DNA of 64,000 nucleotides from assembly GCA_020723485.1 (NCBI GenBank), contig DYIU01000003.1:394347-458346 (forward strand). Reading direction: 5' to 3'. This stretch comes from Acidimicrobium ferrooxidans. Its GTDB lineage: Bacteria > Actinomycetota > Geothermincolia > Fen-727 > Anoxymicrobiaceae. The position numbers and the translations under genes are program-made. This document shows, one piece after another, positions 1,395 through 60,789 of this stretch. Under the pieces are notes generated by a model, which saw nothing but the letters and a program-made list of their open reading frames with translations, did no database searches and was not told the origin of the DNA. Numbering within the stretch: the first letter of the stretch is position 1; every line of letters begins with the position of its first letter.

Positions 1395-1769
1395 ATGGAG
1401 GCAAGCAGCAGCGGTTTCCCGGCCTGGTTGATAGTTGTCCTGGCTCTCGTCGGTCTTGCCATCTACATCTATACGGCGTACTGCCTGATGAAGATAGCCG
1501 GGAGGCTGGGGGTGGAGAACGGGTGGTTCGCCTTCATACCGTTCCTCAACTACTGGCTCATCACAAAGATGGGGGGAAGGGACTCCACCTGGTTCATCTT
1601 CATGCTTCTCGGGTCGTTCTGCTGCGGCATCGTCACGATGGTCATGTTCATAATCATCATGATGGACGTCGCCGAAGCGCTGGGATTCCAGGACTGGTGG
1701 GGAATCCTCCTAATCATCCCGCTCTTGAACCTCTACGTCTTCTACAAGCTGGCGTTCACCGAGCCGTGA
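1395..1769 (+). CDS. Small integral membrane protein (3-4 predicted TM helices), function unknown
   Basis: 124-aa ORF made of hydrophobic segments. GAAGGAG sits upstream of the ATG. Confidence 0.5.
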   Translation: MEASSSGFPAWLIVVLALVGLAIYIYTAYCLMKIAGRLGVENGWFAFIPFLNYWLITKMGGRDSTWFIFMLLGSFCCGIVTMVMFIIIMMDVAEALGFQDWWGILLIIPLLNLYVFYKLAFTEP

Positions 1770-1853: not shown

Positions 1854-2015
1854 CCCGCAGGTTTGAATCACAATAGTGTTCAGAAATTAACAATATAATG
1901 AAGTTTGCTTCATTATTAACAGCCCGAGCCGGAAATTCGCAGCAAGGCTGTGGGTCCTGATTAATATTGATATTATTCAAGGCTATTGTTTATTACTGTG
2001 ATTCAAACCTGCGGG
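1854..2015. repeat. AT-rich island of about 124 bp, flanked by a perfect 19-bp inverted repeat (CCGCAGGTTTGAATCACA / TGTGATTCAAACCTGCGG). Could be a MITE-like element or a small RNA locus.
   Basis: Inverted-repeat arms at 1854-1872 and 1997-2015. The interior is about 70% AT in an otherwise 63% GC context and has internal hairpins (AATGAAG...CTTCATT). It lies between convergent gene ends. Confidence 0.5.
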
Positions 2016-2045
2016 ACGCTCTAGATCGAGACGCTGAATCGACCC

Positions 2046-2257
2046 GGGTCGGGCACCCTCTCGGAGGACACCCACGTTGTGCCCGGCGCCAGCAGAGCAG
2101 ATAGATTCCCGGAACCGCGGTTCTACCGAGTCTGATGATCAGGGTCGGCACCCTCACATGGATTCCCGGAACGCCAAACCGGCGGAGTCGTAGCCGCGGT
2201 ACTCGAGCCGCCTCAGTCCGTCGTACAGTACCGCGGTTCTATCGAGTCTGATGATCA
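2046..2257. repeat. Two tandem imperfect direct repeats of about 96 and 116 bp. Each begins GGGTCGG(G)CACCCTC, contains GATTCCCGGAAC and ends ACCGCGGTTCTA(C/T)CGAGTCTGATGATCA.
   Basis: The 28-bp terminal units at 2114-2141 and 2230-2257 differ at 1 of 28 positions. The second unit abuts the stop codon of the 2258-3292 gene. Confidence 0.5.
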
Positions 2258-3292
2258 TCAGTAAGGAGCCCAGTACCAGCCTTTTCCCTCGCAGTTGGGG
2301 CAGGTCTTGGTCGAGCCGTCAGGGAAGATGAAGTAACCCAGGCCGCCGCACTCGGGACACTCTATCCTCTGGCCCCCTGATTCGGACTCCTCCTGCTGCT
2401 GCTGGGCGGCAGCCTGCTGCTCGGCCGCCGCGGCTGCCTGCTGGGCCGCGGCAGTCTCCGACTGGATCCTGGCCTGCTCAGCCGCAACCGCCTCGTTGAC
2501 CTTCTGTTCCGTCTTCTTGGTCCAGTCCCAACCGACGTCTAGGACGCCGAAGCCCTCGTCGGTCTTCTCGACCTGGTCGTTGTCCGCGACGAACTCCCCG
2601 TTGGCCTTTTCGACCGACTTCGCCAGATTCTGCAGCTCCGTGAGTATCTTGTTGAGGTTGTTGACCACGTCTGGATTTATGAGCTGGTTGCCCGCGAGGG
2701 CGTTGTTCAGTGCGGTTATGTACTCGACCATCTTCTTTACGTATTCCTTGTATACCTCGAGGGCAACGGCCAACTGCTCCGCCTTGATATCGCGCGTATT
2801 GGCGGGTTTTGCATCCGGGTTCTTGCGTAAGCCGTCGGTGCCCCCTTTCTCCTCCTGTATCTCCTGGAGGGCGGCCAGCTTCGTCTGGCTCTTCTTGAGG
2901 TCCTCCTGCGCCTGGTTGAGTGAGGCGGTGTCCATGGTTATCCGGGCGACCTCATCACTGTCATCCTCGAGGAGCGCTTCGTAGTCTTCCCAGACCTCCA
3001 TTGTCGCGGCGTCGACCTTGTCGTTCGCGCCGGCCTTGAATATGAAGATGCCTCCGAGCACAAGTCCGCCCAGCACCGCGACCCCGATTATCACGACGAG
3101 GGCTATTCCCGCCGGTGAAGAGAAGAACCCGCCCGAGTCTTTCTTCCTGTCCGCATCCTGTGGCGGCTGTGCCTGTGCCGCGGGAGCGACCGTCATCGGC
3201 GCGGTCGCGCCCGGGTCGCCGAACCGGTAGCCGCACTCGGGGCAGAACTTGCTGCCGTCGTTCACTGAACTGCCGCAGTTTCTACAGAACAT
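2258..3292 (-). CDS. Membrane-anchored coiled-coil protein bracketed by zinc ribbons: N-terminal CxxC-x12-CxxC, one TM helix, a long Ala/Gln/Glu-rich coiled coil, and a C-terminal CPECGG...CPNCEG ribbon
   Basis: 344-aa ORF. The motifs are visible in the translation. No confident family assignment. Confidence 0.55.
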   Translation of the reverse strand: MFCRNCGSSVNDGSKFCPECGYRFGDPGATAPMTVAPAAQAQPPQDADRKKDSGGFFSSPAGIALVVIIGVAVLGGLVLGGIFIFKAGANDKVDAATMEVWEDYEALLEDDSDEVARITMDTASLNQAQEDLKKSQTKLAALQEIQEEKGGTDGLRKNPDAKPANTRDIKAEQLAVALEVYKEYVKKMVEYITALNNALAGNQLINPDVVNNLNKILTELQNLAKSVEKANGEFVADNDQVEKTDEGFGVLDVGWDWTKKTEQKVNEAVAAEQARIQSETAAAQQAAAAAEQQAAAQQQQEESESGGQRIECPECGGLGYFIFPDGSTKTCPNCEGKGWYWAPY

Positions 3293-5183: not shown

Positions 5184-6031
5184 GGGGTGGACGCGCCGCC
5201 GGGTGGCTCTGGAGCACCAGCGAGCAGCTGGCGGAGAGGCACCGGTGGTACGCGGTCCTCTTAGAGGCTCTGGTCGATTTCCGGCGCAATAAGCTCCGGT
5301 ACCACACCTACTTCTTCACCGTCAACGCCTTCGTGGGGGTGCTCGCGCTGTTTCTCGCCATATCGTCGCTCATGGGCTTCCTGGGGGACTCCGAGTTCAA
5401 GCGGCAGGTGGTGGACGGGATGACGAGCGTGATGCCGGTGCTGCGCGGGAGCAGCTCCGAGGTCCATAACATCTTCGAGACCTTCAAGGGAGCCGCGGGC
5501 ATTGTAAGCTTTCTCTTCCTCATATGGGCGGCCACCAGGATATTCAGCGCGCTCGAGACCGGGTTCAACATCATCTGGGATTCCGAAAAGAGGCGCTACG
5601 CGCACTCTCTGCTGGTAGGCCTCCTGATGACCGCCGTGGTGGGGGCCCTGTTCCTGCTCACTTCACTGATACAGTTCGGGTTCAACAGGCTGCTCGGAGA
5701 GCTCCTCGAGACGAGGAACGTGGGCTACTACCTCGGTGTGGCGGTCGCAAAGCCCATTATCGGCCTGCTCATAAACTTCCTGCTCTTCCTGTTCGTTTAC
5801 CGCGTGGTCACCGGGGTAAGCCCGCCGTTCACCAGGTGCCTGCCCGCGGCCGCGCTGGCGGCGGTCCTCTTCCTCGGCTCCCAGTATGTCCTCAACCTCT
5901 ACTTCGATTACATCTACAAGGTGCCAGCGATATACGGGAGCCTGGCAAGCGGGATAATACTGATACTCTGGATGCAGGCGACGGGCATGATAACCTTCTA
6001 CGGCGCCGAGGTCATCCACGCGCTCGAATAG
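5180..6031 (+). CDS. yihY: YihY/BrkB-family inner membrane protein
   Basis: Six TM segments with the family-typical N-terminal region (RYHTYFFTVNAFVGVLALFLAISS) and a C-terminal GAEVIHALE. The long upstream ORF extension overlaps the amidohydrolase gene and was discarded. The start is probably TTG at 5180, which overlaps the upstream stop codon. Start is approximate. Confidence 0.7.
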   Translation: MRGGRAAGWLWSTSEQLAERHRWYAVLLEALVDFRRNKLRYHTYFFTVNAFVGVLALFLAISSLMGFLGDSEFKRQVVDGMTSVMPVLRGSSSEVHNIFETFKGAAGIVSFLFLIWAATRIFSALETGFNIIWDSEKRRYAHSLLVGLLMTAVVGALFLLTSLIQFGFNRLLGELLETRNVGYYLGVAVAKPIIGLLINFLLFLFVYRVVTGVSPPFTRCLPAAALAAVLFLGSQYVLNLYFDYIYKVPAIYGSLASGIILILWMQATGMITFYGAEVIHALE

Positions 6032-6111
6032 GGTCAGACCATTTTCGTTGCGTCAGCAACATGTTCAACATGTTAAATAGAGTGCCTGACGCAACGAAAA
6101 TGGTCTGACCC
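6031..6111. terminator. Perfect 26-bp-stem palindrome (GGGTCAGACCATTTTCGTTGCGTCAG ... CTGACGCAACGAAAATGGTCTGACCC) with a 29-nt loop. It exactly fills the gap between two convergent stop codons. Likely a bidirectional terminator and/or a palindromic repeat element.
   Basis: Arms at 6031-6056 and 6086-6111. The loop contains the direct repeat CAACATGTT twice. The arms resemble the repeat family at 11230, 33209, 51278 and 59880. Confidence 0.55.
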
Positions 6112-9100
6112 TATTCGCCGATGGTGGAGGTGCCGGCCCCGCGGCTGTTCCAGTACATCGCCTGTTCGGCCACTATCCCCTTGCCGGGGGTCTTGCAGGT
6201 GACCTCGACGGCGGCGCGGCCTGCCGGTACCCTATCCGACATGTCGTAACTCCTGCGGGAATGCGCGGGCACCACCTCGGAGAAGACGACCTCTTCCCCC
6301 TCTCCGGCCAGCGGCATGTATGAGACCTCTATCTCCACATCCTGGTTGTTGGGGTTCTGCACGATGGTCCATGTCTCGTGGCCGTTGTATGTCTCTCCAT
6401 CCGGCAGGTAGAACGTCCCCCTGGTGGAACCGACCCCGATGGAGCAGTGGCCCGCTTCTCCGTTCGGCGTGTCCCCGCCCCACAGCATGACCCTCTCGGC
6501 GACGATCGGCGCGGAGCCGTGGACTTCCATAGACAGGTCGGTGCTCGCGACCGGCTGTATATCGTTCACCCTGACGGTCCTCCTGGAGCAGGCAGGTATC
6601 TGTAACTCCGACCGCCACCTGCCGCCTTCAGATGTCATGTAGGTCACGGTGACATCCGTGTCTGTGGGCTGCGGGTTCTGCACTACCAGGTACGTCGTGA
6701 ATCCCCAGGCCGTGGTCCCTTCCGCCAGGTAGAAGTCCCTGGAGGGAGTGTCCGTGCCGATGGATTCATGCCCTTCCCTGCGGTTGTTTCCGTACATCGT
6801 CCTCTCGGGGACCACCGGCACGTCGCTTTCCACTTTGATGCTCGCGTCCGCCGCGCCTGTGTCACCGGCAACGTCGATGGAAGCCCGCGACATGGCCGGC
6901 ACCTCGTGACGGACCGTTCTCGGGGCACCGTCCTCGAACATATAGGTCACGTCGCAGGTCGCCGGGGCATCGTTGGGATTGAGAATCGTCAACCAGCACT
7001 CGAAGCCCCATGCGGAGGAGCCCTCTGCGAGGTACCAGGCCTTCCCCGGGGTATCGACTCCCACGGACGAATGGCCTTCCGCGGAAGGCGCACCCTCTCC
7101 AGTCCAGATCATCCTGCGTTCAACGGCAAGAGGCCTGCCCTCCGGGCTCTCCACGACGGTCGAGAAATCCATAGCCCCTATGTCGTCCCGGGGGTTGATG
7201 ACAGTCTGGCTCGAGGCCGGCAACTCGAGGTCGGGACGGGTCACCGGACCTGCCGGAGTAATATAGGTCAGCTTCGCCGCGGTCGCAGTTTCGTTGGGAT
7301 TCATTATCGTGAGGTATGTATCGAATCCCCAGGCGGACGACCCCTCGGCAAGGTACCCGGCAGGGTTTCGCACCTCCAGGTTTGCCGAGAACTCACTGGT
7401 GTTTCCCTCCCCGCTCGGGTCGCCTGCAGGGCTCGCGGCCGTGGCGGATATCAGGTCGCCCGCCGACATTCCGGATACCGTCGTGCTGAATTCACCGGAA
7501 CTGGCGGCCGTCACGGTCGCCAGGTAATCGCGACCCTGACCGTGACCGGAAGGGTCCGGTGAGGCCCCGGTGAGATAGAGCTCGACGGCGGCGCCTGGTG
7601 GAGCCGTGCCGCGCACCAGCGCATCCCCGGAGTCGTCTACCACGGCCTGTCCTCCCGAGAACACCGGGAAGTTGTAGCCGCGCTGGGGCTTCTCCGGGTT
7701 GTTGTTGTTCCCATCGTTGGGGGTCACACCGTCACCGAGGATATCGATGCCCAGACCGCCGTTGCAATAGATGGAATTCCCGCTTATCCGGTCGCTGTAA
7801 GAGTCCGGCGTCCAGACGACGACCCCGGCGGCCTGGTTGTCCGCTATCCGGTTGGACGTCACCTGGTTGCCTGTAGAATCAGAGAACGGGGCGAACGATA
7901 CGCCGCTGCCGAGGTTTCCCTCAATCGTGTTGTCGGAGACCACGCAGTCCGTGCCGCCCAGGCTGACGCCCGAGTCGTAGACCTTCGTGCCGAAGTCGAG
8001 CGCGGGCGGCGAGTACCCGGCGGCGACGGGCAGCGAGCCCACCGGGAGGTAGTCGCTCCCGGGCGATGCGGCCTGGAAGGCGAGCTCAAATCCTCCATCC
8101 TGAATCTCCGAGTTGTCGTAGCCGAAGCCGGGCAGCACCATGTCCATGAAGCCCAGGAGCACCTCTTTGCTGGGGAACACCCCGGCGTCGGCGTACCAGG
8201 TCATGTAGAGGTCCCCTGAGCCGTTCCACGCGTGCACGAGCCCCACGTTGAAGCTCCTGACCCCGTCCGCGAACTGGACGAGGGACCCGTCCGAGGGCAC
8301 CGCTGCGAACTCGCCGGCCGAGGGGTCCCCGATGAAGAAGCACCCCGGGAAGCCCATGATGGTCTCGTCGTAGTCGTTGCCGCCGAGCGAACGAGGCGAG
8401 TTGGAGGCCTCGTAGCAGGGCAGGCCGGTGCCGTTGCCGGTGATGGTATTCAGGCTGACGGTGCACTGGGAGACGCCGCTGAGGATGAGGCCCTGGTGGC
8501 GGTTGTACTTGATGTGGTTGCGCCCCTCTTCCGAGCCGCCCACTACCGTATGGCCCGCTTCGTTCTCAATCCTTATGCCGGTGTTCGCGTTGCCGAGCCC
8601 GGAAGCGCCGTCGCGGTTGGTACCGATGTAGTTGCCGAGCACCTCGTTGTACTCAGTCCCGGCATCCGACAGGTACACCCCCGAGTCGCCGTTGGCCGCG
8701 ATCACGTTCCCCGTGCCCGCGCCTTCTCCACCGACGGTGTTGGGATTCGAGGCCGAACCGGCGCCCGCGGTGATGCTCACGCCGCTGGAATCGTTGGGCA
8801 GGGCGGCCGTCGCTGTCGCATCGAGCCCGATCACGTTGCCGGCGACCACGTTGCCGTCGGCGTTGGGCCCGGTGATGGTCACACCGTTGGGATTGCCGCT
8901 GATCAGGTTTCCCTCTCCGGGACCGCCTCCGCCTATTGTGTTGTTCGAACTCGACGAGGCGCCTCCATCGATCCAGACACCATCGCTCGCGTTGCCGAGC
9001 GCGGCCGTGCCAGTCTTGTCGGTGCCTATGAAATTACCGGCTATGTGATTGCCGTCCGCCCGGATGCACACGCCTTCGTGGGCCGCTGCGCTTATGAGGT

Positions 9101-9791
9101 TGCCGTCCTGCGGCCCGCTGCCTCCCACCGTGTTTCCGGATGCGGAGCTCGATATGTTGATATTGTCGCTCGCCCCCGGAGCAGGAGCACCCAGGCCGTC
9201 CGCGTAAGTGCCGATGTAGTTCCCCGCCACCACGTTCCCTGTCGCGCCAGGTCCCGAGATGCCTATCCCGTTGCTCGTGAACCCGTAGATCGCGAGTCCC
9301 TGGACCGTATTTCCTCCGGAGCCGATGTTGATGCCGGTCCCGACGGAGCCCTGCCCGTTTACGGCCACCAGGATGACCCTCGAAGCTATCGGCCCTGGCG
9401 ACGCTCCATCCTGTGTGTAACCGTCAATAGTGGTGTTTCCACCATGCAGCACGGGAAGGGGTGAAAGAAGGAGTATCTCGTAGGGGCCGGCCGGGATGTC
9501 GAACTCGATGACCTTGGTGTCCTCGGGGAGCTCCGCGCTGGCATCGATCATCGCCTGCCGCAACGACCCGACCCCGGAGTCGTTGACCGTGACTACGGTG
9601 AAGGTATGCGTGTCCGCCGCTCCCGCCGGTCCGGCCACCATGAACACCGTGGCCGCGACCATTGCAATGAGCACGAGTGCGAACGCCGCGGGCACGCGGA
9701 CTATTCCGGGATACCGCTCGAATGGGACCTTCGTCTCCGGCCTCCTCCACTCAGACTTATCGGGATGCAGGTCACTGGACAGGAAGACCAC
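6111..9791 (-). CDS. Large secreted or membrane-anchored surface protein. It has an N-terminal signal anchor, a right-handed parallel beta-helix region (PbH1/NosD-like; many GNxIxGNxIG repeats), a Ser/Thr-rich linker, and 4 C-terminal ~110-aa repeats with the pattern YLAEGxxAWGF-T-L-I-NP.
   Basis: 1226-aa ORF. The periodic NxxGNxxxGN beta-helix motifs and the four repeats are visible in the translation. The start codon is GTG at 9791 or a downstream Met. Confidence 0.7.
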   Translation of the reverse strand: MVFLSSDLHPDKSEWRRPETKVPFERYPGIVRVPAAFALVLIAMVAATVFMVAGPAGAADTHTFTVVTVNDSGVGSLRQAMIDASAELPEDTKVIEFDIPAGPYEILLLSPLPVLHGGNTTIDGYTQDGASPGPIASRVILVAVNGQGSVGTGINIGSGGNTVQGLAIYGFTSNGIGISGPGATGNVVAGNYIGTYADGLGAPAPGASDNINISSSASGNTVGGSGPQDGNLISAAAHEGVCIRADGNHIAGNFIGTDKTGTAALGNASDGVWIDGGASSSSNNTIGGGGPGEGNLISGNPNGVTITGPNADGNVVAGNVIGLDATATAALPNDSSGVSITAGAGSASNPNTVGGEGAGTGNVIAANGDSGVYLSDAGTEYNEVLGNYIGTNRDGASGLGNANTGIRIENEAGHTVVGGSEEGRNHIKYNRHQGLILSGVSQCTVSLNTITGNGTGLPCYEASNSPRSLGGNDYDETIMGFPGCFFIGDPSAGEFAAVPSDGSLVQFADGVRSFNVGLVHAWNGSGDLYMTWYADAGVFPSKEVLLGFMDMVLPGFGYDNSEIQDGGFELAFQAASPGSDYLPVGSLPVAAGYSPPALDFGTKVYDSGVSLGGTDCVVSDNTIEGNLGSGVSFAPFSDSTGNQVTSNRIADNQAAGVVVWTPDSYSDRISGNSIYCNGGLGIDILGDGVTPNDGNNNNPEKPQRGYNFPVFSGGQAVVDDSGDALVRGTAPPGAAVELYLTGASPDPSGHGQGRDYLATVTAASSGEFSTTVSGMSAGDLISATAASPAGDPSGEGNTSEFSANLEVRNPAGYLAEGSSAWGFDTYLTIMNPNETATAAKLTYITPAGPVTRPDLELPASSQTVINPRDDIGAMDFSTVVESPEGRPLAVERRMIWTGEGAPSAEGHSSVGVDTPGKAWYLAEGSSAWGFECWLTILNPNDAPATCDVTYMFEDGAPRTVRHEVPAMSRASIDVAGDTGAADASIKVESDVPVVPERTMYGNNRREGHESIGTDTPSRDFYLAEGTTAWGFTTYLVVQNPQPTDTDVTVTYMTSEGGRWRSELQIPACSRRTVRVNDIQPVASTDLSMEVHGSAPIVAERVMLWGGDTPNGEAGHCSIGVGSTRGTFYLPDGETYNGHETWTIVQNPNNQDVEIEVSYMPLAGEGEEVVFSEVVPAHSRRSYDMSDRVPAGRAAVEVTCKTPGKGIVAEQAMYWNSRGAGTSTIGE

Positions 9792-16408: not shown

Positions 16409-16698
16409 AGCATCCCCCATCTGGGGTATATTCGGGTTGTCCCCGAATGCGGATTATTCCTTTTATACCGCGGAATGAGATATCCCCCGTATGGGGGTTA
16501 CGCATGCAAGCGGCGACGGTCAATAATTCATGCAACAGGTCCAGCGGCACATTCCACACCGCCCTGGGCACTGTGGGGTTCAAAATCGAAAGGGAAGCTT
16601 TGACCCGCGGGTTTAAACTGGTCACCTGGCCCGCGGCGAGCGAGTGGTGAAACCGGCCCGATCATCGAGGATCGGGTTTTTTATTGGGGGAGGAGAAC
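16409..16698 (+). promoter_or_regulatory. 290-nt structured non-coding leader ending in an intrinsic terminator (CCCGATC-atcgag-GATCGGG + T6 at 16657-16682), immediately upstream of the RBS and ATG of the SdrD-like gene. Candidate attenuator or riboswitch leader, or an sRNA.
   Basis: Multiple hairpins (ATTCGGG...CCCGAAT, CCCCCgtaTGGGGG, CCGCGGG-18nt-CCCGCGG). The terminator T-tract ends 8 nt before the GGAGG site. Confidence 0.4.
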
Positions 16699-18156
16699 AT
16701 GAGACGAGGAACCGTTTTCGCAGTAGTCGCCCTCATGGCACTCGCATTCGTCATGACAACGGCGGGCGCGCTGGTCGTAGCCGAGGACCCCGCCCCGACC
16801 GCGGTCGATACGAACGTGGGCGTCGTGCAGGCGCTCGTCACGGTCGACGGAGTCATGACCGACGGCATCAACGTCACCCTTTACAGCCTCAACGACGACG
16901 GCACCAGGAACCTCGTCGGCACCATGGCGAGCACCGGGGGGGCATACATGGTCTGGCCGTGGGGGACCTCCTACGCGCCGCCCGAGTCAGGCGGCTGGCA
17001 GAACGGCTGGGTCGGATGGAACGCCCTGCCCACCACGCACGCAGACAAGGACTATGTCGACTACGAAGTCGAGGTCGAGGTGCCCGCCGGTCTCATCTCG
17101 GTTAACGGGACCGTGCAGGGCGGGCTGGAAGTCGGGCGCCTGTGGGCCCCCAGCACTGAACACCCCTTCTGCTGGGGAAGGCAGTTCGAGTTCAAGCTCG
17201 AGAGCAGGCCCGTGGAGTACAGGCTGGACGGTTACAAGTTCAAGGACATGAACGAGAACGGCGTCATGGACGCGGACGAGGTCGGCATCCCCGGTGTCAC
17301 CATAGACCTGGACACCGACAAGGCCTCCGCCCAGACCGACGCCGGCGGTTACTTCAGTTTCACCGTTGCGGCGGGAGAACACACGGTGGCGGTCGACGAG
17401 TCGACGGCGCCCGGTTATTACCCCACCACCCCGACCTCGGTCGTCACCAGCGAGGGCAAAACGGTCTACTTCGGCAACGCGCCTTACGGCTCCATATGCG
17501 GCAAGAAGTACAACGACAAGAACAAGAACGGAAAGCCCGACTGCGGCGAGCCCACGCTGGGCGGCGTCACCATCAAGCTGAGCGGCAAGACCAACGTGGG
17601 CGGCGAAGAGGTGAACAAAGAGACGACCACGGCCACTGACGGCAGTTACTGCTTCACAGGGCTGAAGGCCGGCACGTACATCATCACCGAAGTGGTTCCC
17701 TCCGGCTGGTACGCGACCGGTCCGAACCCGAAGACCGTCACGCTTCTGCCGGGGCAGAACGTGACCGGCGTCGATTTCTTCAACGCTCAGGGCTGCGTGC
17801 CGTACGGTTCGATATACGGCAAGAAGTACAACGACAAGAACAAGAACGGAAGGCGAGACTGCTGGGAGCCCACGGTCTCCGGGGTCAAGGTCAAGCTCAG
17901 CGGAGTCATCGACGGCCAGCTCGTGAACAAGGAGACCACGACCTCGTGGGACGGGAGCTACTCGTTCACAGGGCTGAAGGCCGGCACGTACACGATAACG
18001 GAGGTCGTTCCCTCAGGCTGGCAGGCTACAGGCCTCGTGTCGGTTGAGGTGACGCTCCTTCCGGGACAGAAGGTGACCGGAGTCGATTTCTTCAACGTGA
18101 GGACTTCGACGTGCGGATGGACCCTGGACTGGTGCCTCTTCAGCTGCTGGTTTTAG
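16699..18156 (+). CDS. Secreted adhesin-like protein with tandem SdrD-B/CnaB-type repeats (DxNxNGxxD calcium-binding motif) and a Cys/Trp-rich C-terminal tail
   Basis: Signal peptide MRRGTVFAVVALMALAFVMTTAGA. Two near-identical ~100-aa repeats (GSICGKKYNDKNKNGKPDCGEPTLGGV...TEVVPSGW). Ends TCGWTLDWCLFSCWF. Confidence 0.7.
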   Translation: MRRGTVFAVVALMALAFVMTTAGALVVAEDPAPTAVDTNVGVVQALVTVDGVMTDGINVTLYSLNDDGTRNLVGTMASTGGAYMVWPWGTSYAPPESGGWQNGWVGWNALPTTHADKDYVDYEVEVEVPAGLISVNGTVQGGLEVGRLWAPSTEHPFCWGRQFEFKLESRPVEYRLDGYKFKDMNENGVMDADEVGIPGVTIDLDTDKASAQTDAGGYFSFTVAAGEHTVAVDESTAPGYYPTTPTSVVTSEGKTVYFGNAPYGSICGKKYNDKNKNGKPDCGEPTLGGVTIKLSGKTNVGGEEVNKETTTATDGSYCFTGLKAGTYIITEVVPSGWYATGPNPKTVTLLPGQNVTGVDFFNAQGCVPYGSIYGKKYNDKNKNGRRDCWEPTVSGVKVKLSGVIDGQLVNKETTTSWDGSYSFTGLKAGTYTITEVVPSGWQATGLVSVEVTLLPGQKVTGVDFFNVRTSTCGWTLDWCLFSCWF

Positions 18157-20026: not shown

Positions 20027-21427
20027 ATGCTCTGGACCATCAAGGCCGCGAGTGACTTCGAATACGGGTACAACGCCGCCAGGGGGCGCTCTCTCCTCTT
20101 CAGGACGGCGATCGACCGCGCCGTCGAAGCCGTCGGCAGACGCGGCACCGACCGTGAGGCCCAGGCCCGGAAAGCGAAGCGGCACGCGGCGCTGCTCGCG
20201 GAGCGCTACCCGGCCCAGCTGGAGCGGCTCTCCGGCCTCGCCCGCGCGACCGGCCTCGAGCCCCTCGAAGCGACGGCGGGTGAGCTCGCGCTCGGCTCGC
20301 TCCTCAGCACCGGCTGCACCAACTTCGCCGCCGTGCCGCCCGCCACGTCGGACGGCAACCCGTACGTCTCCTGGAACTTCGACCTCTCTCCACTTTTCCG
20401 CCTACTCATGGGCCGCACTCCGCTCTACGTCCGTGACATTGCGGGGAAGAAGCCGTACGTGTGCCTCGGCCTGCCGGTGCTCTTCGGGATAGGGGTGATG
20501 AACGCGGACGGCCTCTGCTCCTGCGTCAACTCCGTATCGGCGACGGACGGCGGGGAGGGCCTGATGTTCTTCGAGCTGAACAACCTGGCCATGGAGACGC
20601 AGTCGACCGTGGACGGGGCGGCCGGCGTCTGGCGTGACAACCCGCGCGAGGTTCTCCCGGGCGTGGCCCTCTCCATGATAATGAACTCGAACAGCATCTT
20701 CGCCGACATGAGGGGAGACGCCGCTGTGATAGAGCACTCCCACAACCACATGGCCGTCGAGAAGGCGCGCGACCACGGCGGCGTCCTCGCCTCGGCAAAC
20801 CACCACCAGTTCCTCGACCGTGCGCTCTCCGGCGGGACCGACCCGTCTGTCGAGCCGATGATAACCGGGTCGTACGCGCGGCTGGCCCGGATGTGGGAGC
20901 TGCTGGAGCTCCTTCGCGGGAAGATGGACAGGGAAACGGCCCGGATAATAGTCACAGACCACGAGACCAACTACTCCACGCTCGCCGAGTTCGGCATCAC
21001 GCGGACGCGGTACGAGGAACGCATCGACGACGCCACAATATGCATGCACCCATGGAACTTCTGGCGCCACCTGCGCCGGTTGGAGCTGCTCGAGGCGGTG
21101 CTCGAGGCCAACATGCCGACCCTTAACTCGATACTCATGGACCCGGCGAGGTGCACAGTCTATTTCACCAGGGGCAATCCCTGCCGCAACCAGTACGTGC
21201 CGGTCTGGGTCGGGGACGCTCTTCGCATGGAGTGGGCCGACCGGGCGCGCGGGGAGCTGGACTACAACCCTGAACTGGCAGCCAGCACCTGGTCCCGCCG
21301 CCTCGACTGGTTCCGCCGGCCCGAATCGACCGTGGTGAGCGATGTCCTGAGGTATGTAGCCCTGACGTTCTTCAGGATTGCGGAGCGCCTGACCCCCGCC
21401 AGCGTCATAAACCGGGGTCACGTCTGA
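20027..21427 (+). CDS. Peptidase C45 / acyl-CoA:6-APA acyltransferase-like Ntn-hydrolase
   Basis: STGCTNFAA nucleophile-Cys motif typical of the C45/AAT family. TATAAT -10 sequence at about 19944 and a GGGAGGG Shine-Dalgarno site. Confidence 0.6.
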   Translation: MLWTIKAASDFEYGYNAARGRSLLFRTAIDRAVEAVGRRGTDREAQARKAKRHAALLAERYPAQLERLSGLARATGLEPLEATAGELALGSLLSTGCTNFAAVPPATSDGNPYVSWNFDLSPLFRLLMGRTPLYVRDIAGKKPYVCLGLPVLFGIGVMNADGLCSCVNSVSATDGGEGLMFFELNNLAMETQSTVDGAAGVWRDNPREVLPGVALSMIMNSNSIFADMRGDAAVIEHSHNHMAVEKARDHGGVLASANHHQFLDRALSGGTDPSVEPMITGSYARLARMWELLELLRGKMDRETARIIVTDHETNYSTLAEFGITRTRYEERIDDATICMHPWNFWRHLRRLELLEAVLEANMPTLNSILMDPARCTVYFTRGNPCRNQYVPVWVGDALRMEWADRARGELDYNPELAASTWSRRLDWFRRPESTVVSDVLRYVALTFFRIAERLTPASVINRGHV

Positions 21428-21500
21428 ACTTATGACTCAGGCTTGCGGTGCGGAGGCAGGAGCGGTCACAAAATCAGACGTGACCCCGGTATATACCGGT

Positions 21501-23087
21501 TTAGTCAAAGGGTATTCCATCCCAGACCCGGCGGTCCGCGCCGAAGGGGTCGTCCTGCTGGGCGGACACTACGTTGAAGACCATGGTCGCCCTGTCCTCG
21601 AGGTCGTAGGGCTTCCAGCCCGGGTCGCCCGAGCGGGCGAAGGACAGCCATGCGTCCTGCATGGCGTCGGAGAGCTTCCGGGGCGGGTCCTCCCCGAGGA
21701 GCGCCTCGAACCGTGTCCCCTCGAGGTTGCCGAAGACGAAGGGTAGCTCCATAGCGTGGCACGAGCCGAGCTTCGGCGCCGCCGGGCTGGACCACGTGAA
21801 CAGGTACATGTAGGTCTTCGGCTGTTTCGCCGATGCCTCCGCTACCCTGATGGCCGGCAGGCGGAACATCACGTCAGTCAGCACCGCCATTGTCACGTCA
21901 CCGTCCGTCGCCCCGGGCCTCCTTGACTTGTAGCTTGACGCGATAGCGTCCGCGGAGCCGCCGACGGCCGCCTGCACCTTCGGGATGAACGGCGCGACCA
22001 CGCTCAGGGGATACATTGCCATCGCCGGGGCCTCCGCAGCCCAGAGGCGCATCTCGTCCAGGTTGGTCCCGATGATAAGTTCGACTCCCGAAGCGCTTCC
22101 CGCCGCGATCGAGTGCAGTGGCGGCTCGAGGATGACCGAACCATCGAGGACCGGCCCGAACACCGTGGCCGACGCCGGGTTGGCCCTTATCATGTCGGAC
22201 TCGGCCTGGACGATGCGCTCAGTGTCGAGTGACAGGAGGCCCTGCAGGTCGGTCACCCCGGCATACTGCATGAGCTGCCGGGTGACGGCCGCGGCGTCCC
22301 CGGTCGAATGGATGAGGCTGAGGGCGCCGCTCTCGGCGATGGCCCGGCTGAAGAGCCCTTTGGCGGCGGGAATCGCCATCAGGGTGCATGTGCTCATGCT
22401 GCCGGCCGACTCCCCGAACACGGTGATGTTCCCGGGGTCGCCCCCGAACGCGGCGATGTTGTCGCGCACCCACTCAAGGGCGGCCACCTGGTCGAGCAGG
22501 CCGAGGTTCCCGCTCTGCGCGTACTCAGCCCCTCCCAGCTCGCCGAGATAGAGGAAGCCGAAGGCGCCGAGGCGGTAGTTGAGCGTCACAACCACCACGT
22601 CACCGCGCTTCGCGAGGCGGGCGCCGTCATACAGAGGTTCTGAACCCGCCCCGTTGGTGAACCCACCGCCGTGTATCCAGACCATGACGGGGCGGCGGCC
22701 GCCGTCCACCCCCGGGGTCCAGACGTTGAGGTTAAGGCAGTCTTCGGACTTCACCACGCCTGAGGCGCTGGCGATGTCACCTTTCGGCTGGGCCGCGGCA
22801 TCCCTGAAATCGAATGCTTTGAGCGTCCCGTCCCAGGGTTTCGGGGGCTCCGGCGGCTTGAAGCGGAGCGCATCGACCGGGGGCGCCGCGTAAGGTATCC
22901 CCTTGAAGACAACGACGCCGTTGGCCGCGACTTTGCCTTCGACCCTCCCCTGCGCCGTGACGGCCGTCGTTCCTATACCACAGCCGGCGGAGAACAGTAT
23001 GAGAGCTGAACACAGAGCAGCAATCAGAACGGCGGCGAGTGCGACCCTCGCACGCCCGCCCGGGAAGCTCGTCGGTATCCCGGCCAT
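21501..23087 (-). CDS. Carboxylesterase type B (para-nitrobenzyl-esterase-like) lipoprotein
   Basis: GESAGS nucleophile elbow, HGGGF oxyanion motif, and lipobox FSAGCG. The true start is the ATG at 23087; the 190-codon upstream extension in the ORF track overlaps the rubrerythrin gene. Confidence 0.85.
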   Translation of the reverse strand: MAGIPTSFPGGRARVALAAVLIAALCSALILFSAGCGIGTTAVTAQGRVEGKVAANGVVVFKGIPYAAPPVDALRFKPPEPPKPWDGTLKAFDFRDAAAQPKGDIASASGVVKSEDCLNLNVWTPGVDGGRRPVMVWIHGGGFTNGAGSEPLYDGARLAKRGDVVVVTLNYRLGAFGFLYLGELGGAEYAQSGNLGLLDQVAALEWVRDNIAAFGGDPGNITVFGESAGSMSTCTLMAIPAAKGLFSRAIAESGALSLIHSTGDAAAVTRQLMQYAGVTDLQGLLSLDTERIVQAESDMIRANPASATVFGPVLDGSVILEPPLHSIAAGSASGVELIIGTNLDEMRLWAAEAPAMAMYPLSVVAPFIPKVQAAVGGSADAIASSYKSRRPGATDGDVTMAVLTDVMFRLPAIRVAEASAKQPKTYMYLFTWSSPAAPKLGSCHAMELPFVFGNLEGTRFEALLGEDPPRKLSDAMQDAWLSFARSGDPGWKPYDLEDRATMVFNVVSAQQDDPFGADRRVWDGIPFD

Positions 23088-23119
23088 GGGCAGCTGTGTG
23101 TCGGTCAACCTGGGAATCC

Positions 23120-23677
23120 TCAGGCCTTCCCCTCGAGCTTTGTCAGCTTGTCCTCGTCGAGCTGTATGTGGTCGGCCTCTATCATCGAGAGGGCCGCGAA
23201 CACCTCTTTCACCCTGGGGTCCGTCGCCTCGGCGGCGGAAGCCGCGTAGAACTTCGTGGCGTTGTTCTCGCGCTTGAGCGACTCCCTGACGTTCTCGATG
23301 TAGGCGTCGTGGCACTCCTCGGTGTGCTCCTTGTCGGGCTTGGGCTGGCCGAGCATCTTGAGGATGGTCGACGCGTGCTCGTTCTCGACCTTCGAGAGCG
23401 CCTTGAAGGTGGCGAACCCCTCGAAATCGCCCGCCTCGTCCCCCTTGGCCGATGAGCAGCGGTAGAACGCGGTGTTGGACTGCTCGATGGCAAGAGCCTT
23501 CTCGAGGTTGCCCCTGTCCGTGTCGTTGAGGGTTCCGACCTTCGGGTCGTCCCAGTCGCTCGCGAGGATTATGTACTCCGCGTGTGCCCCGCAGAACGGG
23601 CAGTGCGAGGGTGGCACCGCCCCTATGTAAGGGTCTCCGCAAATCCTGCATCTCCATACGCGCACCTTCATATCCAT
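23120..23677 (-). CDS. Rubrerythrin-family protein with an N-terminal rubredoxin-like zinc/iron ribbon (reverse-rubrerythrin arrangement)
   Basis: CRICGD...CPFCG, then a ferritin-like ExxH four-helix region. Confidence 0.8.
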   Translation of the reverse strand: MDMKVRVWRCRICGDPYIGAVPPSHCPFCGAHAEYIILASDWDDPKVGTLNDTDRGNLEKALAIEQSNTAFYRCSSAKGDEAGDFEGFATFKALSKVENEHASTILKMLGQPKPDKEHTEECHDAYIENVRESLKRENNATKFYAASAAEATDPRVKEVFAALSMIEADHIQLDEDKLTKLEGKA

Positions 23678-23738: not shown

Positions 23739-26369
23739 TCAGGGGTCGAAGCCTATGGAGTCGTGGGCGCACTGGCGATAACACGTGGCGGTGTCCCAGT
23801 ACATCGCCCGTTCCGCGATGACCGGCTGGTCCGAGGCGACCCTGGTGGAGACGCTGAACTCGTTGGGAAGGCAGTCAGCCACGTTCAGTGTCTTCCGGGT
23901 GTGCGGGGTAAGCGTGAACTCCTGCCCGGCCACCTCTACGCCTCTGGGGGTCTGATAGTAGAGCCTCACGTTGGCAGCCGTATCTCCCGGGTTCTGCACC
24001 AGCACCCACGTCTCGAAGCATCCCTGCTGGCTCGCCCCGGTGCAACCCTCGGCGAGGTACCAGGCGCCGCAGGGCGCAGTGACGCCCACGGAATCGGTGG
24101 CCGACTGGCGGTAGGAGCCCGGGGTGCCTGTCCAGTACATCGAGCGCTCGGCGATCACGGGCTCGTCCGAATCCACCCGCGTGGAGACGCTGAACTCGTT
24201 GGGCAGAAAATCGGCGACGTTGCGTGTCTCGCGCGAGTGGGCGCCCACGGTGAGTTCGTGGCCCTTCACCTCGGTGGTCGGCGTCTGGTAGTAGAGCTGG
24301 ACATGCGCCGGGCTGCTGCCGGGGTTCTGCACGAGGACCCAGGTCTCGAACGAGCCCTGCTCATTGGTGCCGGTGCTTCCTTCGGCGAGGTACCACGCGG
24401 TGCAGGGCGCCGTGACCCCTATGGAGTCGTGGGCCGCCGCCCTGTACGCCCCCGGCGCGCACCAGTACATCGCCCTCTCAGCTATGACTGGCTGGTCGGA
24501 TGTCACCTTCGTGGACACGCTGAACTGGTTGGGCACTACATCGGCCACGTTCCGGGTCTCTCTGGCGTGCGGCTTCACCGTGAACTGGTGCCCTTCGACC
24601 TGCCCGTCCGGGGTCTGGTAGTAGTACTTCACATTGGCGGGCTCGTCTCCCGGGTTCTGAACCAAGACCCACGTCTCGAACCACCCGAATTCGTTGGCTC
24701 CCGTGCTGCCCTCGGCGAGGTACCAGGTCTTCGCCGGGGAGGTCACCCCTATCGAGTCGGTGGCGGACTGACGGAATGCGCCGGGCGCGTCCCAGTACAT
24801 GGAGCGCTCTGCGATTATAGGTCTGTTCGACACCACCCGGGTGGAGACGCTCCACTCACCGGGGACGACGTCGGCCACGCTCCTTGTATCCCGCGAGTGA
24901 GGGGCCAGCGTCATCTGCTGGCCGGGGACTTCACCGGAAGGGGTCTGGTAGAACAGCTGGACGTCCGCGGACTCGTCCCCCGGGTTCTGCACCAGTATCC
25001 AAGTCTCGAAGTAACCGAACTCGTTCACCCCCGTGCTGCCCTCGGCCAGGTACCAGGTGAATGTCGCGGGTGTGTACTTGGCCACGAAAGTGGTGTAGTC
25101 GCCGTCGGGGTCGCTGTTGGATATCGACATGCCGACGGTGTAGACGTTCCCCTTGTCGTCGACGTTGGTGGCGTGCGCCTCATCGGAATAACCGGCCCTG
25201 TTCAGCACCTGCGGGAATCCCGGGGACATCGCCCCGTTCGGAGCGTACCTGTTGGTGTGCACGCTCGTGTCCGCCTGGCGCGTGAACGAGGCCGCGATGT
25301 TGCCCTCGCTGTCCACGGCGCCGTGCCAGGTGTCGGGCGGATGGTAGCCTACCATGCCGGCGGACGAGTCCGTCTTCGGCCACCCGGCGACCTGGGCCCC
25401 GGCTTTCGTGTAACGGTTGACCAGGAGCTTCCCGGAGTCATAGGGCGGGGCGAGCGCCGCGCCCTGGGTGAGCCCCACGAGGCAGTACTGGCCGTTCGAG
25501 TCCTGGGTGACCGATGAGTACTCGTCGTAGAGCGCGCCGCCGGAGGTCCAGGTCTTGGGCCACCCGGCGGCAAGGTTTCCATCCGTGTCCATCTTGAAGA
25601 GGGCCGCGTCCCTGTCCCCTGCGCCCGGGGTCCCGTACCCGGCCGCCACAAGGTTGCCGTCCGAGTCCTGGATTATGTCGTACCCCACCGTGTTGGTGCC
25701 GGACACCTGGTATGTCCTCGGCCAGCCCGAGACGATGGTGCCTGAGGCCGTGTATTTCACCACCAGCAGCGAGTAAACCGTGCCCGCCGCGTTGCGGGCA
25801 TATCCACAGGCGACGATGTTGCCGTCCGAGTCTACGATTGCTGCGGTCCCGTACGAATGGTCGCTCACGTGCATGTACTTCGGCCAACCGGGGAGAGGAT
25901 TGCCCTCGGAATCGAGCCTCCATACGGCCAGGTTCCAGACGTTTCCCGTCGTTATCATGTAGCCGCCGATGGTCATGTCGCCGTTCGGCTCAACGAAGAC
26001 GTCCTGCCCCTCGTTCCAGCGCATGCCGGCCTGGGCGTAGAACCTGGGCCAACCCGGGAGGAGCTTACCGTCCTGCGTGTACCTGCCGACGATGAGCTCG
26101 CCGGGGTCACTACCCACGTTATCGCCGTCAGACCCGACCGCCACCACCGTGCCGTCCGGGCATATCGCCACGTTGTGGTACTCGGGGCAGCGATCAGGCC
26201 TGGGGTCGGCGTAGTAGGAAGTCCAGGGTGCGTTCGAGCCGCCCCCCGGCGCGACCGAGGCCGGCTGCGTGCCGCCCGCAAGGGCCGGCGCGATCCCGAT
26301 GGAGACACAGCAGGCGGAAAGCAGGATAGTGACGGCAAGAGCAAGGAACTGCCGCGTGTTCGCCCACAT
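23739..26369 (-). CDS. Secreted surface protein: signal peptide, an N-terminal DUF5122-like beta-propeller region, and 4-5 C-terminal ~112-aa repeats (WYLAEGSTGxNEFGxFETWVLVQNPG ... VADxxPxxFSVSTxVxSDxPxIAERxMYW ... HDSIGV)
   Basis: The repeats are nearly in register across about 560 aa. Start taken at the ATG at 26369 (MWANTRQFLALAVTILLSA, a signal peptide); the ORF track extends to 26441. Confidence 0.7.
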   Translation of the reverse strand: MWANTRQFLALAVTILLSACCVSIGIAPALAGGTQPASVAPGGGSNAPWTSYYADPRPDRCPEYHNVAICPDGTVVAVGSDGDNVGSDPGELIVGRYTQDGKLLPGWPRFYAQAGMRWNEGQDVFVEPNGDMTIGGYMITTGNVWNLAVWRLDSEGNPLPGWPKYMHVSDHSYGTAAIVDSDGNIVACGYARNAAGTVYSLLVVKYTASGTIVSGWPRTYQVSGTNTVGYDIIQDSDGNLVAAGYGTPGAGDRDAALFKMDTDGNLAAGWPKTWTSGGALYDEYSSVTQDSNGQYCLVGLTQGAALAPPYDSGKLLVNRYTKAGAQVAGWPKTDSSAGMVGYHPPDTWHGAVDSEGNIAASFTRQADTSVHTNRYAPNGAMSPGFPQVLNRAGYSDEAHATNVDDKGNVYTVGMSISNSDPDGDYTTFVAKYTPATFTWYLAEGSTGVNEFGYFETWILVQNPGDESADVQLFYQTPSGEVPGQQMTLAPHSRDTRSVADVVPGEWSVSTRVVSNRPIIAERSMYWDAPGAFRQSATDSIGVTSPAKTWYLAEGSTGANEFGWFETWVLVQNPGDEPANVKYYYQTPDGQVEGHQFTVKPHARETRNVADVVPNQFSVSTKVTSDQPVIAERAMYWCAPGAYRAAAHDSIGVTAPCTAWYLAEGSTGTNEQGSFETWVLVQNPGSSPAHVQLYYQTPTTEVKGHELTVGAHSRETRNVADFLPNEFSVSTRVDSDEPVIAERSMYWTGTPGSYRQSATDSVGVTAPCGAWYLAEGCTGASQQGCFETWVLVQNPGDTAANVRLYYQTPRGVEVAGQEFTLTPHTRKTLNVADCLPNEFSVSTRVASDQPVIAERAMYWDTATCYRQCAHDSIGFDP

Positions 26370-26461
26370 GAGAATCCCTCCCCGTGCAACAACCGCAATG
26401 CAAGGTTCTCCAGGGGGAATCATATATGAACCGGGCGGCAAGTTGCACTGGGGCCGGGGCC

Positions 26462-51306: not shown

Positions 51307-51355
51307 GTTCTGTGCTAGGATTCAGCTACCTTTGAGGCAATCCAGGGAGGCGCGG

Positions 51356-52876
51356 GTGCAGGTAGTGTTCCATCCATTTCTGCTGGCGGTCGCGCCCGTC
51401 CTCTTTCTTTACGCGTTCAATATAGACCAGGTCGTCTTCGGGGATGCGCTCTGGCCGCTGCTGGTGAGCCTCGCGGTAGCGTCCGCCCTCTTCTTCGCGC
51501 TTTCGGCCCTGCTGAAGAACAAGAAAGAGGCGGGACTCCTGGTCTCGCTGGGCCTTATCCTGTTCTTCTCCTACGGGCACCTGATGAGCGTCCTGCGCGA
51601 ACTCGGCCTGACCGACGGCCCGTGGCTCTGGCTCCCCGTGTTCGCGGCCGCCTTCGCCGCCGGGGCGTTCCTCGTCGTCAGGTACCGGGACAGGCTCACG
51701 ACGCCCACCTACCTGCTCAACGTGGTAGCGATAGTGCTCGTAGGCCTCTCGCTCTTCAACATTGTCAGCCACGAGCTGCGCTCGAAACCGGAGGTGCCGC
51801 AGCCGGACATCGTGGTAAAGGAGGGAAAGAAGCCCGCCGGGGTGACGGAGCCACCGGATATCTACTACATCATCCTCGACGCTTACGGCTCTCAGAGCAC
51901 GCTGGAGGAGGCTTACGGCTTCGATAACAGCGAGTTCCTCGGGTTTCTCCAGGAGAAGGGATTCTACGTCCCCGAGGACTCGAGGAGCAACTACTTCGAG
52001 ACGTTCCTGTCGCTCTCCTCAGCGCTCAACATGGAGTACCTGGGCTTCCTGGAGAAGGACCCGGGCCCGGACTCGAACGACCGCTCGATCCCCTACCAGA
52101 TGCTGCAGGACAACGCCGTCGCGCGCTTCCTGAAGTCGAGCGGCTACGAGTATGTCTTCTTCGCCTCCGGCTGGTCCGGGACGTCCCACAGCCGGGCCGC
52201 CGACCGCGTTGTAGCCGAGCACCACCTCTTTGACAACGAGTTCTGGAACGCGCTTGTCAGGACCACCGCCCTTCGGCCGCTCGCGCGCAACTGGCTGTTC
52301 ACAAGGGCGGCGGTGAACGCCACTTTCGAGCGGATACCGGAGGCGGTCGGCAGGTCGGACGGGCCGGCGTTCGTCTTCGCGCACATCGTCCCGCCGCACC
52401 ACCCGTTCAGGTTCGCCGCGGACGGCGGCTTGCCGGAGCCGGCGGGATCTGGCGTCGAGGCCAGGAAAGCCGCCTACGTAGAGCAGGTCCAGTACGTGAA
52501 CGGCAAGATAGAGGAACTGGTAGACGATCTGCTGTCCCGGGAGGGCCCGCGGCCGGTCATCATCATCCAGGGAGACCACGGTCCGAGCTACGCGGGGAAC
52601 CCGGCCAGCCGAGAGGCGTCTCCCGGCAAGAGGGAGCCGGTGGACGAATACGTCCAGGAGCGCTCCGGCATCCTCAACGCATACTACCTGCCGGCGCCGG
52701 ACGGCGGAACCGTCTCTCTCTACGAGGGAATCTCACCGGTCAACAGCTTCCGAGAGGTGTTCGACCTGTACCTGGGGACGGGCATGGAGAGGCTTCCAGA
52801 CCGCATCTACTACTCCACCTACAGCCGCCCGTTCGACTTCCGCGACGTCACCGACACGGTGAAGGACGCCGACTGA
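51356..52876 (+). CDS. Membrane-anchored sulfatase / LTA-synthase-like (alkaline-phosphatase superfamily) protein
   Basis: 5 N-terminal TM helices, then a sulfatase-like domain (DIYYIILDAYGS, HIVPPHHP, IIIQGDHGP). GTG start at 51356 with a GGGAGG Shine-Dalgarno site; the ORF track starts at TTG 51332. Confidence 0.7.
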   Translation: MQVVFHPFLLAVAPVLFLYAFNIDQVVFGDALWPLLVSLAVASALFFALSALLKNKKEAGLLVSLGLILFFSYGHLMSVLRELGLTDGPWLWLPVFAAAFAAGAFLVVRYRDRLTTPTYLLNVVAIVLVGLSLFNIVSHELRSKPEVPQPDIVVKEGKKPAGVTEPPDIYYIILDAYGSQSTLEEAYGFDNSEFLGFLQEKGFYVPEDSRSNYFETFLSLSSALNMEYLGFLEKDPGPDSNDRSIPYQMLQDNAVARFLKSSGYEYVFFASGWSGTSHSRAADRVVAEHHLFDNEFWNALVRTTALRPLARNWLFTRAAVNATFERIPEAVGRSDGPAFVFAHIVPPHHPFRFAADGGLPEPAGSGVEARKAAYVEQVQYVNGKIEELVDDLLSREGPRPVIIIQGDHGPSYAGNPASREASPGKREPVDEYVQERSGILNAYYLPAPDGGTVSLYEGISPVNSFREVFDLYLGTGMERLPDRIYYSTYSRPFDFRDVTDTVKDAD

Positions 52877-53264
52877 GCTCCGGCTCAACGTGAAACAGCC
52901 ACGAATGCATACTCTGCAGAGTGCCCAAGACCCGGCACGCGTTCAATCAACGCTTTGAGTTCCGTTACGGCCCGTCATGGTACGGCGCGGTCAAGGGGGC
53001 GGTGGCCGGTTTACTCAATGCGTTGAGTAATCCCCGCCGGGGGCAGGCCGGCAAACCCGGGACAGGCGGTGTCGGACATTTGCATAACAAAACCAACAAC
53101 AGTTGACCGATGAATCATCCTCAACGGAAACAGCCTCTTCGAGGCTCTCGAAGTCGGCTCAGCCGTTATTCATGTTGCTTGTGTTGCTTTCTGGTAAGAG
53201 AAATGCTTTTTGTGACGCAAACGCCCGACACCATCGATCGTCCGACTCCCCCCACAAACCTTGT

Positions 53265-60774: not shown

Positions 60775-60789
60775 TTCTTACCTCCCCAT

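Follow-up and report, generated by a model that had tools for sequence, protein, structure and literature searches.

What could have set an AT-rich, hairpin-forming island and a pair of repeated units side by side between two converging genes is the question raised by positions 1854–2257 of a 64,000-nucleotide stretch of Acidimicrobium ferrooxidans (GTDB family Anoxymicrobiaceae; contig DYIU01000003.1), the whole of which is referred to here as the window. The island and the units share a spacer of 488 bp between a DUF5684 membrane-protein gene and a zinc-ribbon gene. A previous examination of the letters by themselves (the sequence-only reading) had suggested a miniature inverted-repeat transposable element (MITE) or other mobile-element footprint, or a small-RNA locus. 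The main point missed about 2016–2257 was that the repeat units are coding fragments, on the opposite strand, of glmS, the gene for glutamine--fructose-6-phosphate aminotransferase. The most likely reading of the locus is that a genomic scar lies beside a transcription stop, with neither a new RNA gene nor a mobile element that is still active.

The repeats were found to be a tandemly duplicated, decayed pseudogene fragment of the glmS 5′ end. When positions 1780–2290 were compared with plasmids by blastn, the glmS genes of about 30 records were matched, always over window positions 2168–2233, with Burkholderia, Pseudomonas, Rhizobium, Tsukamurella and many haloarchaea among the sources; in B. 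thailandensis the match lay 43–91 nt from the glmS start, antisense to the plus strand of the window. Similarly, the 34-aa translation of an open reading frame (ORF) over the fuller copy, unit B, was placed by NCBIfam on positions 9–37 of the 607 of the glmS equivalog TIGR01135 (E = 1e-8). A hidden Markov model (HMM) of the GlmS N-terminus, built by us from 21 GlmS N-termini retrieved with the fragment, gave a single match in the six frames of the whole window, at model positions 8–39 (E = 6e-14). Unit B keeps these codons uninterrupted over 96 nt, including the conserved LRRLEYRGYDSAG motif, and the fragment is in line with the host genes in its codon usage (score of 0.17 vs 0.30 ± 0.21). An extension of the homology past codon 39 into unit A and the spacer before it (GARPGSIQRLDLE compared with GK..NLE) was supported by neither NCBIfam nor our HMM and was dropped.

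The truncation of the fragment is equally clear. Codons 1–7 are missing, and with them the MCGIVG start, the start codon and the catalytic Cys2, the ORF being devoid of cysteine altogether, and the frame of unit B meets a stop two codons past the fading of the homology, after codon ~40. The absence of Cys2 and the early stop are the grounds for calling it a pseudogene. In fact, the 34-aa ORF (MIIRL...RESM), which is listed as a predicted protein (source NCBI) in a public protein collection, scored 34 bits against a TIGR01135 cutoff of 418, and is far from the ~600 aa, isomerase domain included, of a full GlmS. No complete glmS or other glmS-like segment was found in the 64-kb window. A protein search with the fragment for the genuine glmS of the lineage returned the fragment alone, and no contig came up when the 34-aa ORF was looked up as an exact protein.

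The glmS identity of the units accounts for the 28-nt repeat and for the heptamer CTGATGA without recourse to an RNA motif. The 28-mer, ACCGCGGTTCTAYCGAGTCTGATGATCA, occurs twice at a spacing of 116 nt with one mismatch (0 such repeats expected by chance) and corresponds to glmS codons ~8–15 plus the unit edge. CTGATGA stands once per unit on the plus strand and is the reverse complement of the ...TCATCAG... of the minus-strand frames; it is the TGA stop of the zinc-ribbon gene overlapping an accidental ATG (TGATG) at the unit edge. The sequence-only reading had noticed that it formed no standard C/D arrangement, and this was borne out by Rfam: a scan of the whole window gave no gathering-level match at this locus, and within 1700–2400 the covariance models detected no hammerhead, glmS ribozyme, C/D box or Y RNA, the lone match at E ≤ 10 being an irrelevant chance similarity to Pseudomonas P5 (15 bits, at 1787–1849). 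The repeat region also folded no better than shuffled sequence (z of +0.4 and +0.6).

The two units differ by large insertions and deletions. About 57 of the 116 nt of unit B can be aligned to unit A, in blocks of 28, 16 and 13 nt, the remainder consisting of indels of 59 and 38 nt, and no array was called here by Tandem Repeats Finder; of the two tandem units of about 100 bp described earlier, the shared 28-mer therefore stood and the regularity did not. Unit A equals unit B minus 59 nt plus 38 nt, its 28-mer being fused directly to the block that follows the core in unit B. The ends of the 59-nt deletion share a short microhomology (GCGGT / GGCGT), and the 38-nt insert holds an inverted copy, GTGCCCG, of the adjacent CGGGCAC. 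A third, degenerate 28-mer was considered at 2016–2045, where the alignment was not above background (p ~0.2).

An independent Logan assembly of run SRR13164373 reproduced the island and both units base for base, in two contigs (L001 and L002) that break inside unit B, one ending at 2226 and the other beginning at 2201, with an overlap of 26 identical bases. Since a de Bruijn graph of k = 31 stops at about 34 nt shared with another locus, the break suggests that an exact repeat of ~34 nt (2197–2230, the LYDGLRRLEYR codons) is present elsewhere in the sample, presumably in a genuine glmS, either that of the source organism or that of a co-occurring one.

The island itself is a different kind of sequence. 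Its arms are 22 nt long and 95% complementary, and the perfect 19-bp inverted repeat of the sequence-only reading was confirmed as their outer part; the 19-mer occurs in the window at just these two sites (0.01 expected). The 124 bp between the 19-nt arms were of the length given before but of lower AT content, 65% as measured against the ~70% claimed, and the 162-bp island as a whole is 61% AT. Its standing as a strong compositional outlier was upheld, the 120 nt at 1884–2003 being the lowest in GC (34%) of a window with a mean of 64.3% and a standard deviation of 5.5%. The predicted fold is a 22-bp closing stem around three small hairpins (~1895–1916, 1919–1951 and 1953–1984), with minimum free energies of -65 kcal/mol on the plus strand and -72 kcal/mol on the minus strand (z of -7.1 and -8.8). 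Both strands fold alike because a DNA palindrome dominates the signal, and the fold alone is therefore no evidence for an RNA gene. A full-length palindrome was also considered, and only the arms proved significantly palindromic, not the inner halves. A subterminal motif, AAT(T/A)AACAATA, is present in both halves. The coding capacity of the island is limited to spurious ORFs, and its promoter-like hexamers (TTAACA-18-CATTAT at 1887–1916, with a perfect TATAAT at 1894–1899) occur on both strands, as expected from AT-richness.

The position of the island was compared with that of the other long hairpins of the window. The three longest inverted repeats (6025–6117, 21407–21494 and 1854–2015) each sit in one of about six convergent junctions, which together make up less than 2% of the window. 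They share no sequence and thus are not one repeat family. The flanking genes of the island were confirmed to converge, DUF5684 on the plus strand and the zinc-ribbon gene on the minus strand, a setting which the sequence-only reading had called atypical for a promoter; a position between converging 3′ ends is in fact typical for the long hairpins of this window. The repeat at 6025–6117 lies between a converging BrkB-family gene (ending at 6031) and a gene for a 1226-aa DUF5719 protein (ending at 6111), and its arms take in the 3′-terminal codons of both genes, each with its TAG stop (CGAATAG on each strand). Logan contig L001 also ends in its left arm, at 6054, as would be expected of an inverted repeat exceeding k = 31. 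The repeat at 21407–21494 lies between the converging genes 20027–21427 (plus) and 21501–23657 (minus, a carboxylesterase), the left arm holding the plus-strand TGA stop. No comparable long hairpins were found in the loci of distant relatives.

Another convergent junction of the window, a gene-free gap of 388 nt (52877–53264) between a sulfatase-like gene (51332–52876, plus) and trpA (53265–54125, minus), drops to 45% GC at 53085–53204, carries small palindromes such as TTACTCAATGCGTTGAGTAA at ~53011–53030 and has no Rfam match.

Further copies of the island were sought widely. No further copy of the island, its 19-mer or the repeat unit was met in the window or in the loci of relatives, of which 94 kb had been fetched (mismatch-tolerant search and nhmmer), four scans of viral contigs, IMG/VR included, gave no island, and blastn against plasmids and phages gave no island match. 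A protein-word search with the longest frame of the island, meant to reveal other copies through spurious ORFs called on them, returned nothing. In JGI metagenomes the 19-mer was met at two independent loci, about the number expected by chance, as a single arm or a 7-bp mini-hairpin and without an island. A scan of 185,579 GTDB genomes for the arm-gap-arm pattern (arms of 12 + 12 nt) gave one match, in a member of the Polyangiaceae, with the 12-nt arms only and an unrelated GC-rich interior. The island itself was recovered neither by the arm pattern from GTDB nor by the 19-mer from JGI, which shows that these two sets do not contain the source genome.

The Polyangiaceae match (L003, 4245–4397, in the metagenome-assembled genome (MAG) contig JAXLYP010000013.1; arms GGTTTGAATCAC / GTGATTCAAACC) has an arm spacing of 129 nt, compared with 126 nt in the island, and is the sole such match in 596 Gb. 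Its inverted repeat may be intergenic, the gene calls being ambiguous. As a relative of the island it was judged coincidental, with ~0.07–0.7 chance matches expected. A further hairpin (L015, 3356–3402, WBZR01000189.1) spans 47 nt, CCCGCAG and CTGCGGG being separated by 33 nt, and its first 20 nt are identical to the island arm. It lies between two minus-strand genes, for an AraC-like regulator and a DUF1801-like protein, and is probably a chance match.

The explanation favoured, and judged moderately probable, is a composite one, in which the 488-bp spacer holds, next to each other, a glmS relic without function and an unrelated hairpin acting as a bidirectional terminator or insulator. Some 100 nt of 5′ glmS coding sequence would have landed on the minus strand, been duplicated head to tail with a period of 116 nt, and decayed, unit A losing its 59-nt centre and gaining its 38-nt, snap-back-like insert through slippage, template-switch or end-joining repair; the relic would, in the best explanation, serve no function of its own. 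The island hairpin, which has no U tract, would act on transcripts arriving from both sides as a terminator or 3′-end protector, and would insulate the two converging genes from each other. This role is proposed because all three exceptional hairpins of the window lie between converging genes. The AT-richness and terminal inverted repeats of the island suggest that it arrived as foreign or once-mobile, possibly MITE-like, DNA, and it may have done so in the same break-and-repair episode as the glmS piece.

Several observations weigh against this composite. A scan for canonical terminators gave no terminator-like site at 1854–2015 on either strand, and the bases past the stem, GGGACGCUC on the plus strand and GGGGAGGAC on the minus strand, form no U tract. 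The structured, AT-rich "loop" of 118 nt is beyond what a terminator needs, those of the other two hairpins measuring 28–29 nt. Why this site should have received an internal 5′ piece of glmS is left unexplained by the reading as a relic, and a sequence that is young or maintained could likewise show an uninterrupted frame of 32 codons. Finally, the evidence for a single copy of the island extends over the 64 kb and the public collections.

Among the other explanations, an active or recently active MITE, i.e., an internally deleted insertion sequence that has kept both ends, with the glmS scraps as filler or cargo of transposition or excision, fits the architecture of the island: terminal inverted repeats of 22 bp on 162 bp of non-coding DNA with 34% GC in a 64% GC genome, a subterminal motif shared by both halves and visibly scrambled DNA alongside. 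The sequence-only reading came close in speaking of a footprint. It had also proposed a check for a target-site duplication, and none was found in the flanks (GTCCTC|CCCGCAGG...CCTGCGGG|ACGCTC), the sole candidate, a palindromic CG, belonging to the inverted repeat itself. A second copy was likewise missing from the window, the loci of relatives, viral contigs, plasmids and phages, the JGI metagenomes and GTDB yielding only the two island-free 19-mer matches and the 12-nt arms, respectively; no transposase is encoded in the window, and the inner halves are not significantly palindromic. A MITE is therefore considered unlikely. The glmS repeats and the island might also be the remains of an attachment (att) site, with a core and an AT-rich arm, of an integrative element that targeted the glmS 5′ end, the site having later been displaced from glmS or carried on a decayed element. 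The attL/attR sites of tyrosine integrases typically consist of direct repeats of a conserved housekeeping-gene fragment beside an internally repetitive AT-rich segment, and the fragment is indeed of the glmS 5′ end; nevertheless, it is internal (codons 8–39) and lacks the start codon that a 5′-end-restoring attP requires, neither glmS nor an integrase or excisionase lies within the 64-kb window, and the literature search yielded no element with the glmS 5′ end as its known target. The flanking genes are, moreover, ordinary backbone, and a DUF5719 gene likewise lies near a zinc-ribbon homologue at the locus of a distant relative (L005). Such an origin appears quite improbable.

The remaining alternatives concern RNA and assembly. 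A trans-encoded antisense RNA, in which a promoter in the island would drive a plus-strand transcript against codons 8–39 of the glmS mRNA and thereby down-regulate glmS, would be in keeping with the antisense orientation of 2160–2255, the intact 96-nt frame of unit B and the hexamers of the island, but is held to be still less probable than the attachment site: the hexamers are to be expected from AT-richness and stand on both strands, no plus-strand terminator is present, so that transcription would continue, antisense, into the zinc-ribbon gene, no fold signal marks the repeat region, and no homologous locus was found in the public protein search, JGI metagenomes or loci of relatives. In unit A, moreover, it is precisely the complementary core that is missing, an argument against selection. 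For the small-RNA locus proposed originally no support was found either, with no Rfam match, no terminator and only such promoter-like hexamers as AT-rich DNA yields anyway. Very doubtful, too, is a reading of the island as a novel structured RNA, non-coding, whose long closing stem leads to a junction of three hairpins. The low folding z-scores and clean multibranch structure of the island on both strands would suit this reading, but the 22-bp inverted repeat supplies most of the energy, the two strands are equal as in any DNA palindrome, no Rfam family matched at E ≤ 10, and no homologue was found for a covariation analysis. Least credible is an assembly artefact, in which a chimeric join through k-mers shared with a real glmS would have produced an apparent tandem structure. 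Both Logan contigs do end inside unit B (2201, 2226) and leave the join unspanned by that assembly; neither side, however, continues into a real glmS, the right one lacking Cys2 and the left one meeting a stop, both contigs carry the 28-mer in tandem register, and their overlap is identical over 26 bases.

The wider setting is that of an ordinary chromosome. About 48 ORFs of the window were assigned by Pfam to common chromosomal genes (the trp operon, mnmA, cysteine desulfurase, a copper ATPase, histidine kinases), several DUF5719 paralogues among them, and no integrase, excisionase, transposase, reverse transcriptase or recombinase was found in this set; a scan for tRNA and tmRNA genes found none. 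By its protein matches the window belongs to a Geothermincolia-like actinobacterial MAG. The identical zinc-ribbon protein was met only in one NCBI contig and in the Logan assembly of SRR13164373, two weaker relatives being annotated as "Candidatus Geothermincolia" and "Actinobacteria" MAG proteins, and the best other relatives reaching ≤47% identity. The comparison of orthologous regions that had been proposed at the outset (seven loci from four relatives) found synteny largely lost and gave no conserved presence of the spacer. The coordinates are collected in Table 1.

Table 1. Positions of the features of the spacer, its flanking genes and the other long inverted repeats of the window.
Feature	Positions	Strand	Remarks
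DUF5684 membrane-protein gene	1395–1769	+	
Island inverted repeat, left arm	1854..1875	.	CCCGCAGGTTTGAATCACAATA; outer 19 nt perfect
AT-rich core	1876..1993	.	Two AT-rich flanks around a GC-richer centre
Island inverted repeat, right arm	1994..2015	.	TACTGTGATTCAAACCTGCGGG
Spacer between island and unit A	2016..2045	.	30 nt; without significant similarity to the repeat unit
Unit A, degenerate glmS-derived copy	2046..2141	-	Without the 59-nt glmS centre
Unit A, blocks			28-mer 2114–2141; 16-nt block 2098–2113; A-specific 38-nt insert 2060–2097; 14-nt block 2046–2059
Unit B, fuller copy	2142..2257	-	
Unit B, blocks			28-mer 2230–2257; 59-nt centre 2171–2229; 16-nt block 2155–2170; 13-nt block 2142–2154
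glmS 5′ coding fragment, GlmS codons 8–39	2255..2160	-	IIRLDRTAVLYDGLRRLEYRGYDSAGLAFRES; found by blastn, TIGR01135 and own HMM
Accidental 34-codon ORF	2258..2154	-	MIIRLDRTAVLYDGLRRLEYRGYDSAGLAFRESM, then stop; ATG overlaps the zinc-ribbon TGA stop (TGATG)
Zinc-ribbon/coiled-coil gene	2258–3292	-	
Inverted repeat	6025–6117		32 nt, perfect; 29-nt AT-rich loop; -69 to -72 kcal/mol; z -12.5
Inverted repeat	21407–21494		30 nt, 87%; 17 nt perfect (GGGGTCACGTCTGA...); z -6.9 to -8.1

Other features of the window were recorded in passing. Four large paralogous secreted proteins are encoded at 1–1201, 6111–9791, 23739–26441 and 62119–63978, three of them with a DUF5719 match and the first with a repeat motif of about 50 aa ending in GGPP. 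Internal tandem repeats of 312–330 nt occur within 17481–18097 and 23796–24725. A cyclic di-GMP-II riboswitch (RF01786; 61 bits, E = 4e-11) was identified on the plus strand at 16584–16667, and the gene directly 3′ of it (16684–18156) encodes a surface protein with SdrD-B, SpaA and CarboxypepD_reg domains. Additionally, a ParE-toxin gene (60240–60521, minus) with an upstream partner ORF, in the region 60240–60860, looks like a toxin-antitoxin module with its operator; the promoter region of the module has 35% GC, the second-lowest of the window, and overlapping palindromes at 60808–60853.

The result is mainly a correction, as an apparent array of RNA or mobile-element motifs proved to consist of a housekeeping-gene remnant, and it cautions that motifs of the CTGATGA type should not be read before both strands have been translated. 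Three unusually long hairpins, each with a sequence of its own and one of them lying over both stop codons, occupy convergent junctions within these 64 kb and are candidates for a terminator or insulator strategy in a little-studied lineage. The relic would record a break-repair or template-switch event by which an internal 5′ piece of glmS was copied to a distant site. If a plus-strand transcript existed, the same piece would provide glmS with an antisense regulator ready for use, derived from part of the very gene it acts on, and, were the antisense explanation true, amino-sugar synthesis in a poorly known, Geothermincolia-like class of actinobacteria would be regulated by an RNA directed against the first 40 codons of glmS.

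Compared with known systems, the units resemble hammerhead ribozymes and C/D-box RNAs in the CUGAUGA heptamer, carried once per unit on the plus strand, and differ from them in having neither the GAAA core nor the three-stem context. The involvement of a conserved glmS stretch recalls attTn7, though only superficially; Tn7-like transposons, however, use the 3′ end of glmS and the region downstream, whereas the stretch found here is from the 5′ end (codons 8–39) and is accompanied neither by Tn7-type ends (TGT...ACA) nor by tns genes. Bacterial MITE families such as Correia/NEMIS of Neisseria, RUP and ERIC are defined by tens to hundreds of copies. Like them, the island is short, non-coding, bounded by terminal inverted repeats and able to form a long hairpin, and it is likewise intergenic, near gene 3′ ends and unlike its host in composition; unlike them, it showed no target-site duplication, further copies or parent insertion sequence in the sequence searched. 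Unit B agrees with remnants of housekeeping genes in matching the GlmS profile with all the conserved residues present, in a part of glmS whose similarity spans bacteria and haloarchaea, whereas the remnant here amounts to about 5% of the gene and is internal, tandemly duplicated and away from the glmS locus. Further systems for comparison are the repetitive extragenic palindromic (REP) and bacterial interspersed mosaic element (BIME) palindromes and the "I-shaped" hairpin terminators without a U tract described in high-GC actinobacteria. With these the island shares a long, stable stem between converging genes, as do two more hairpins of the window, although its sequence is unique, its branched AT-rich interior of 118 nt is unusual and its termination activity is a prediction. 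The feature is thus mostly ordinary, a pseudogene scrap beside a unique intergenic hairpin, both of known kinds.

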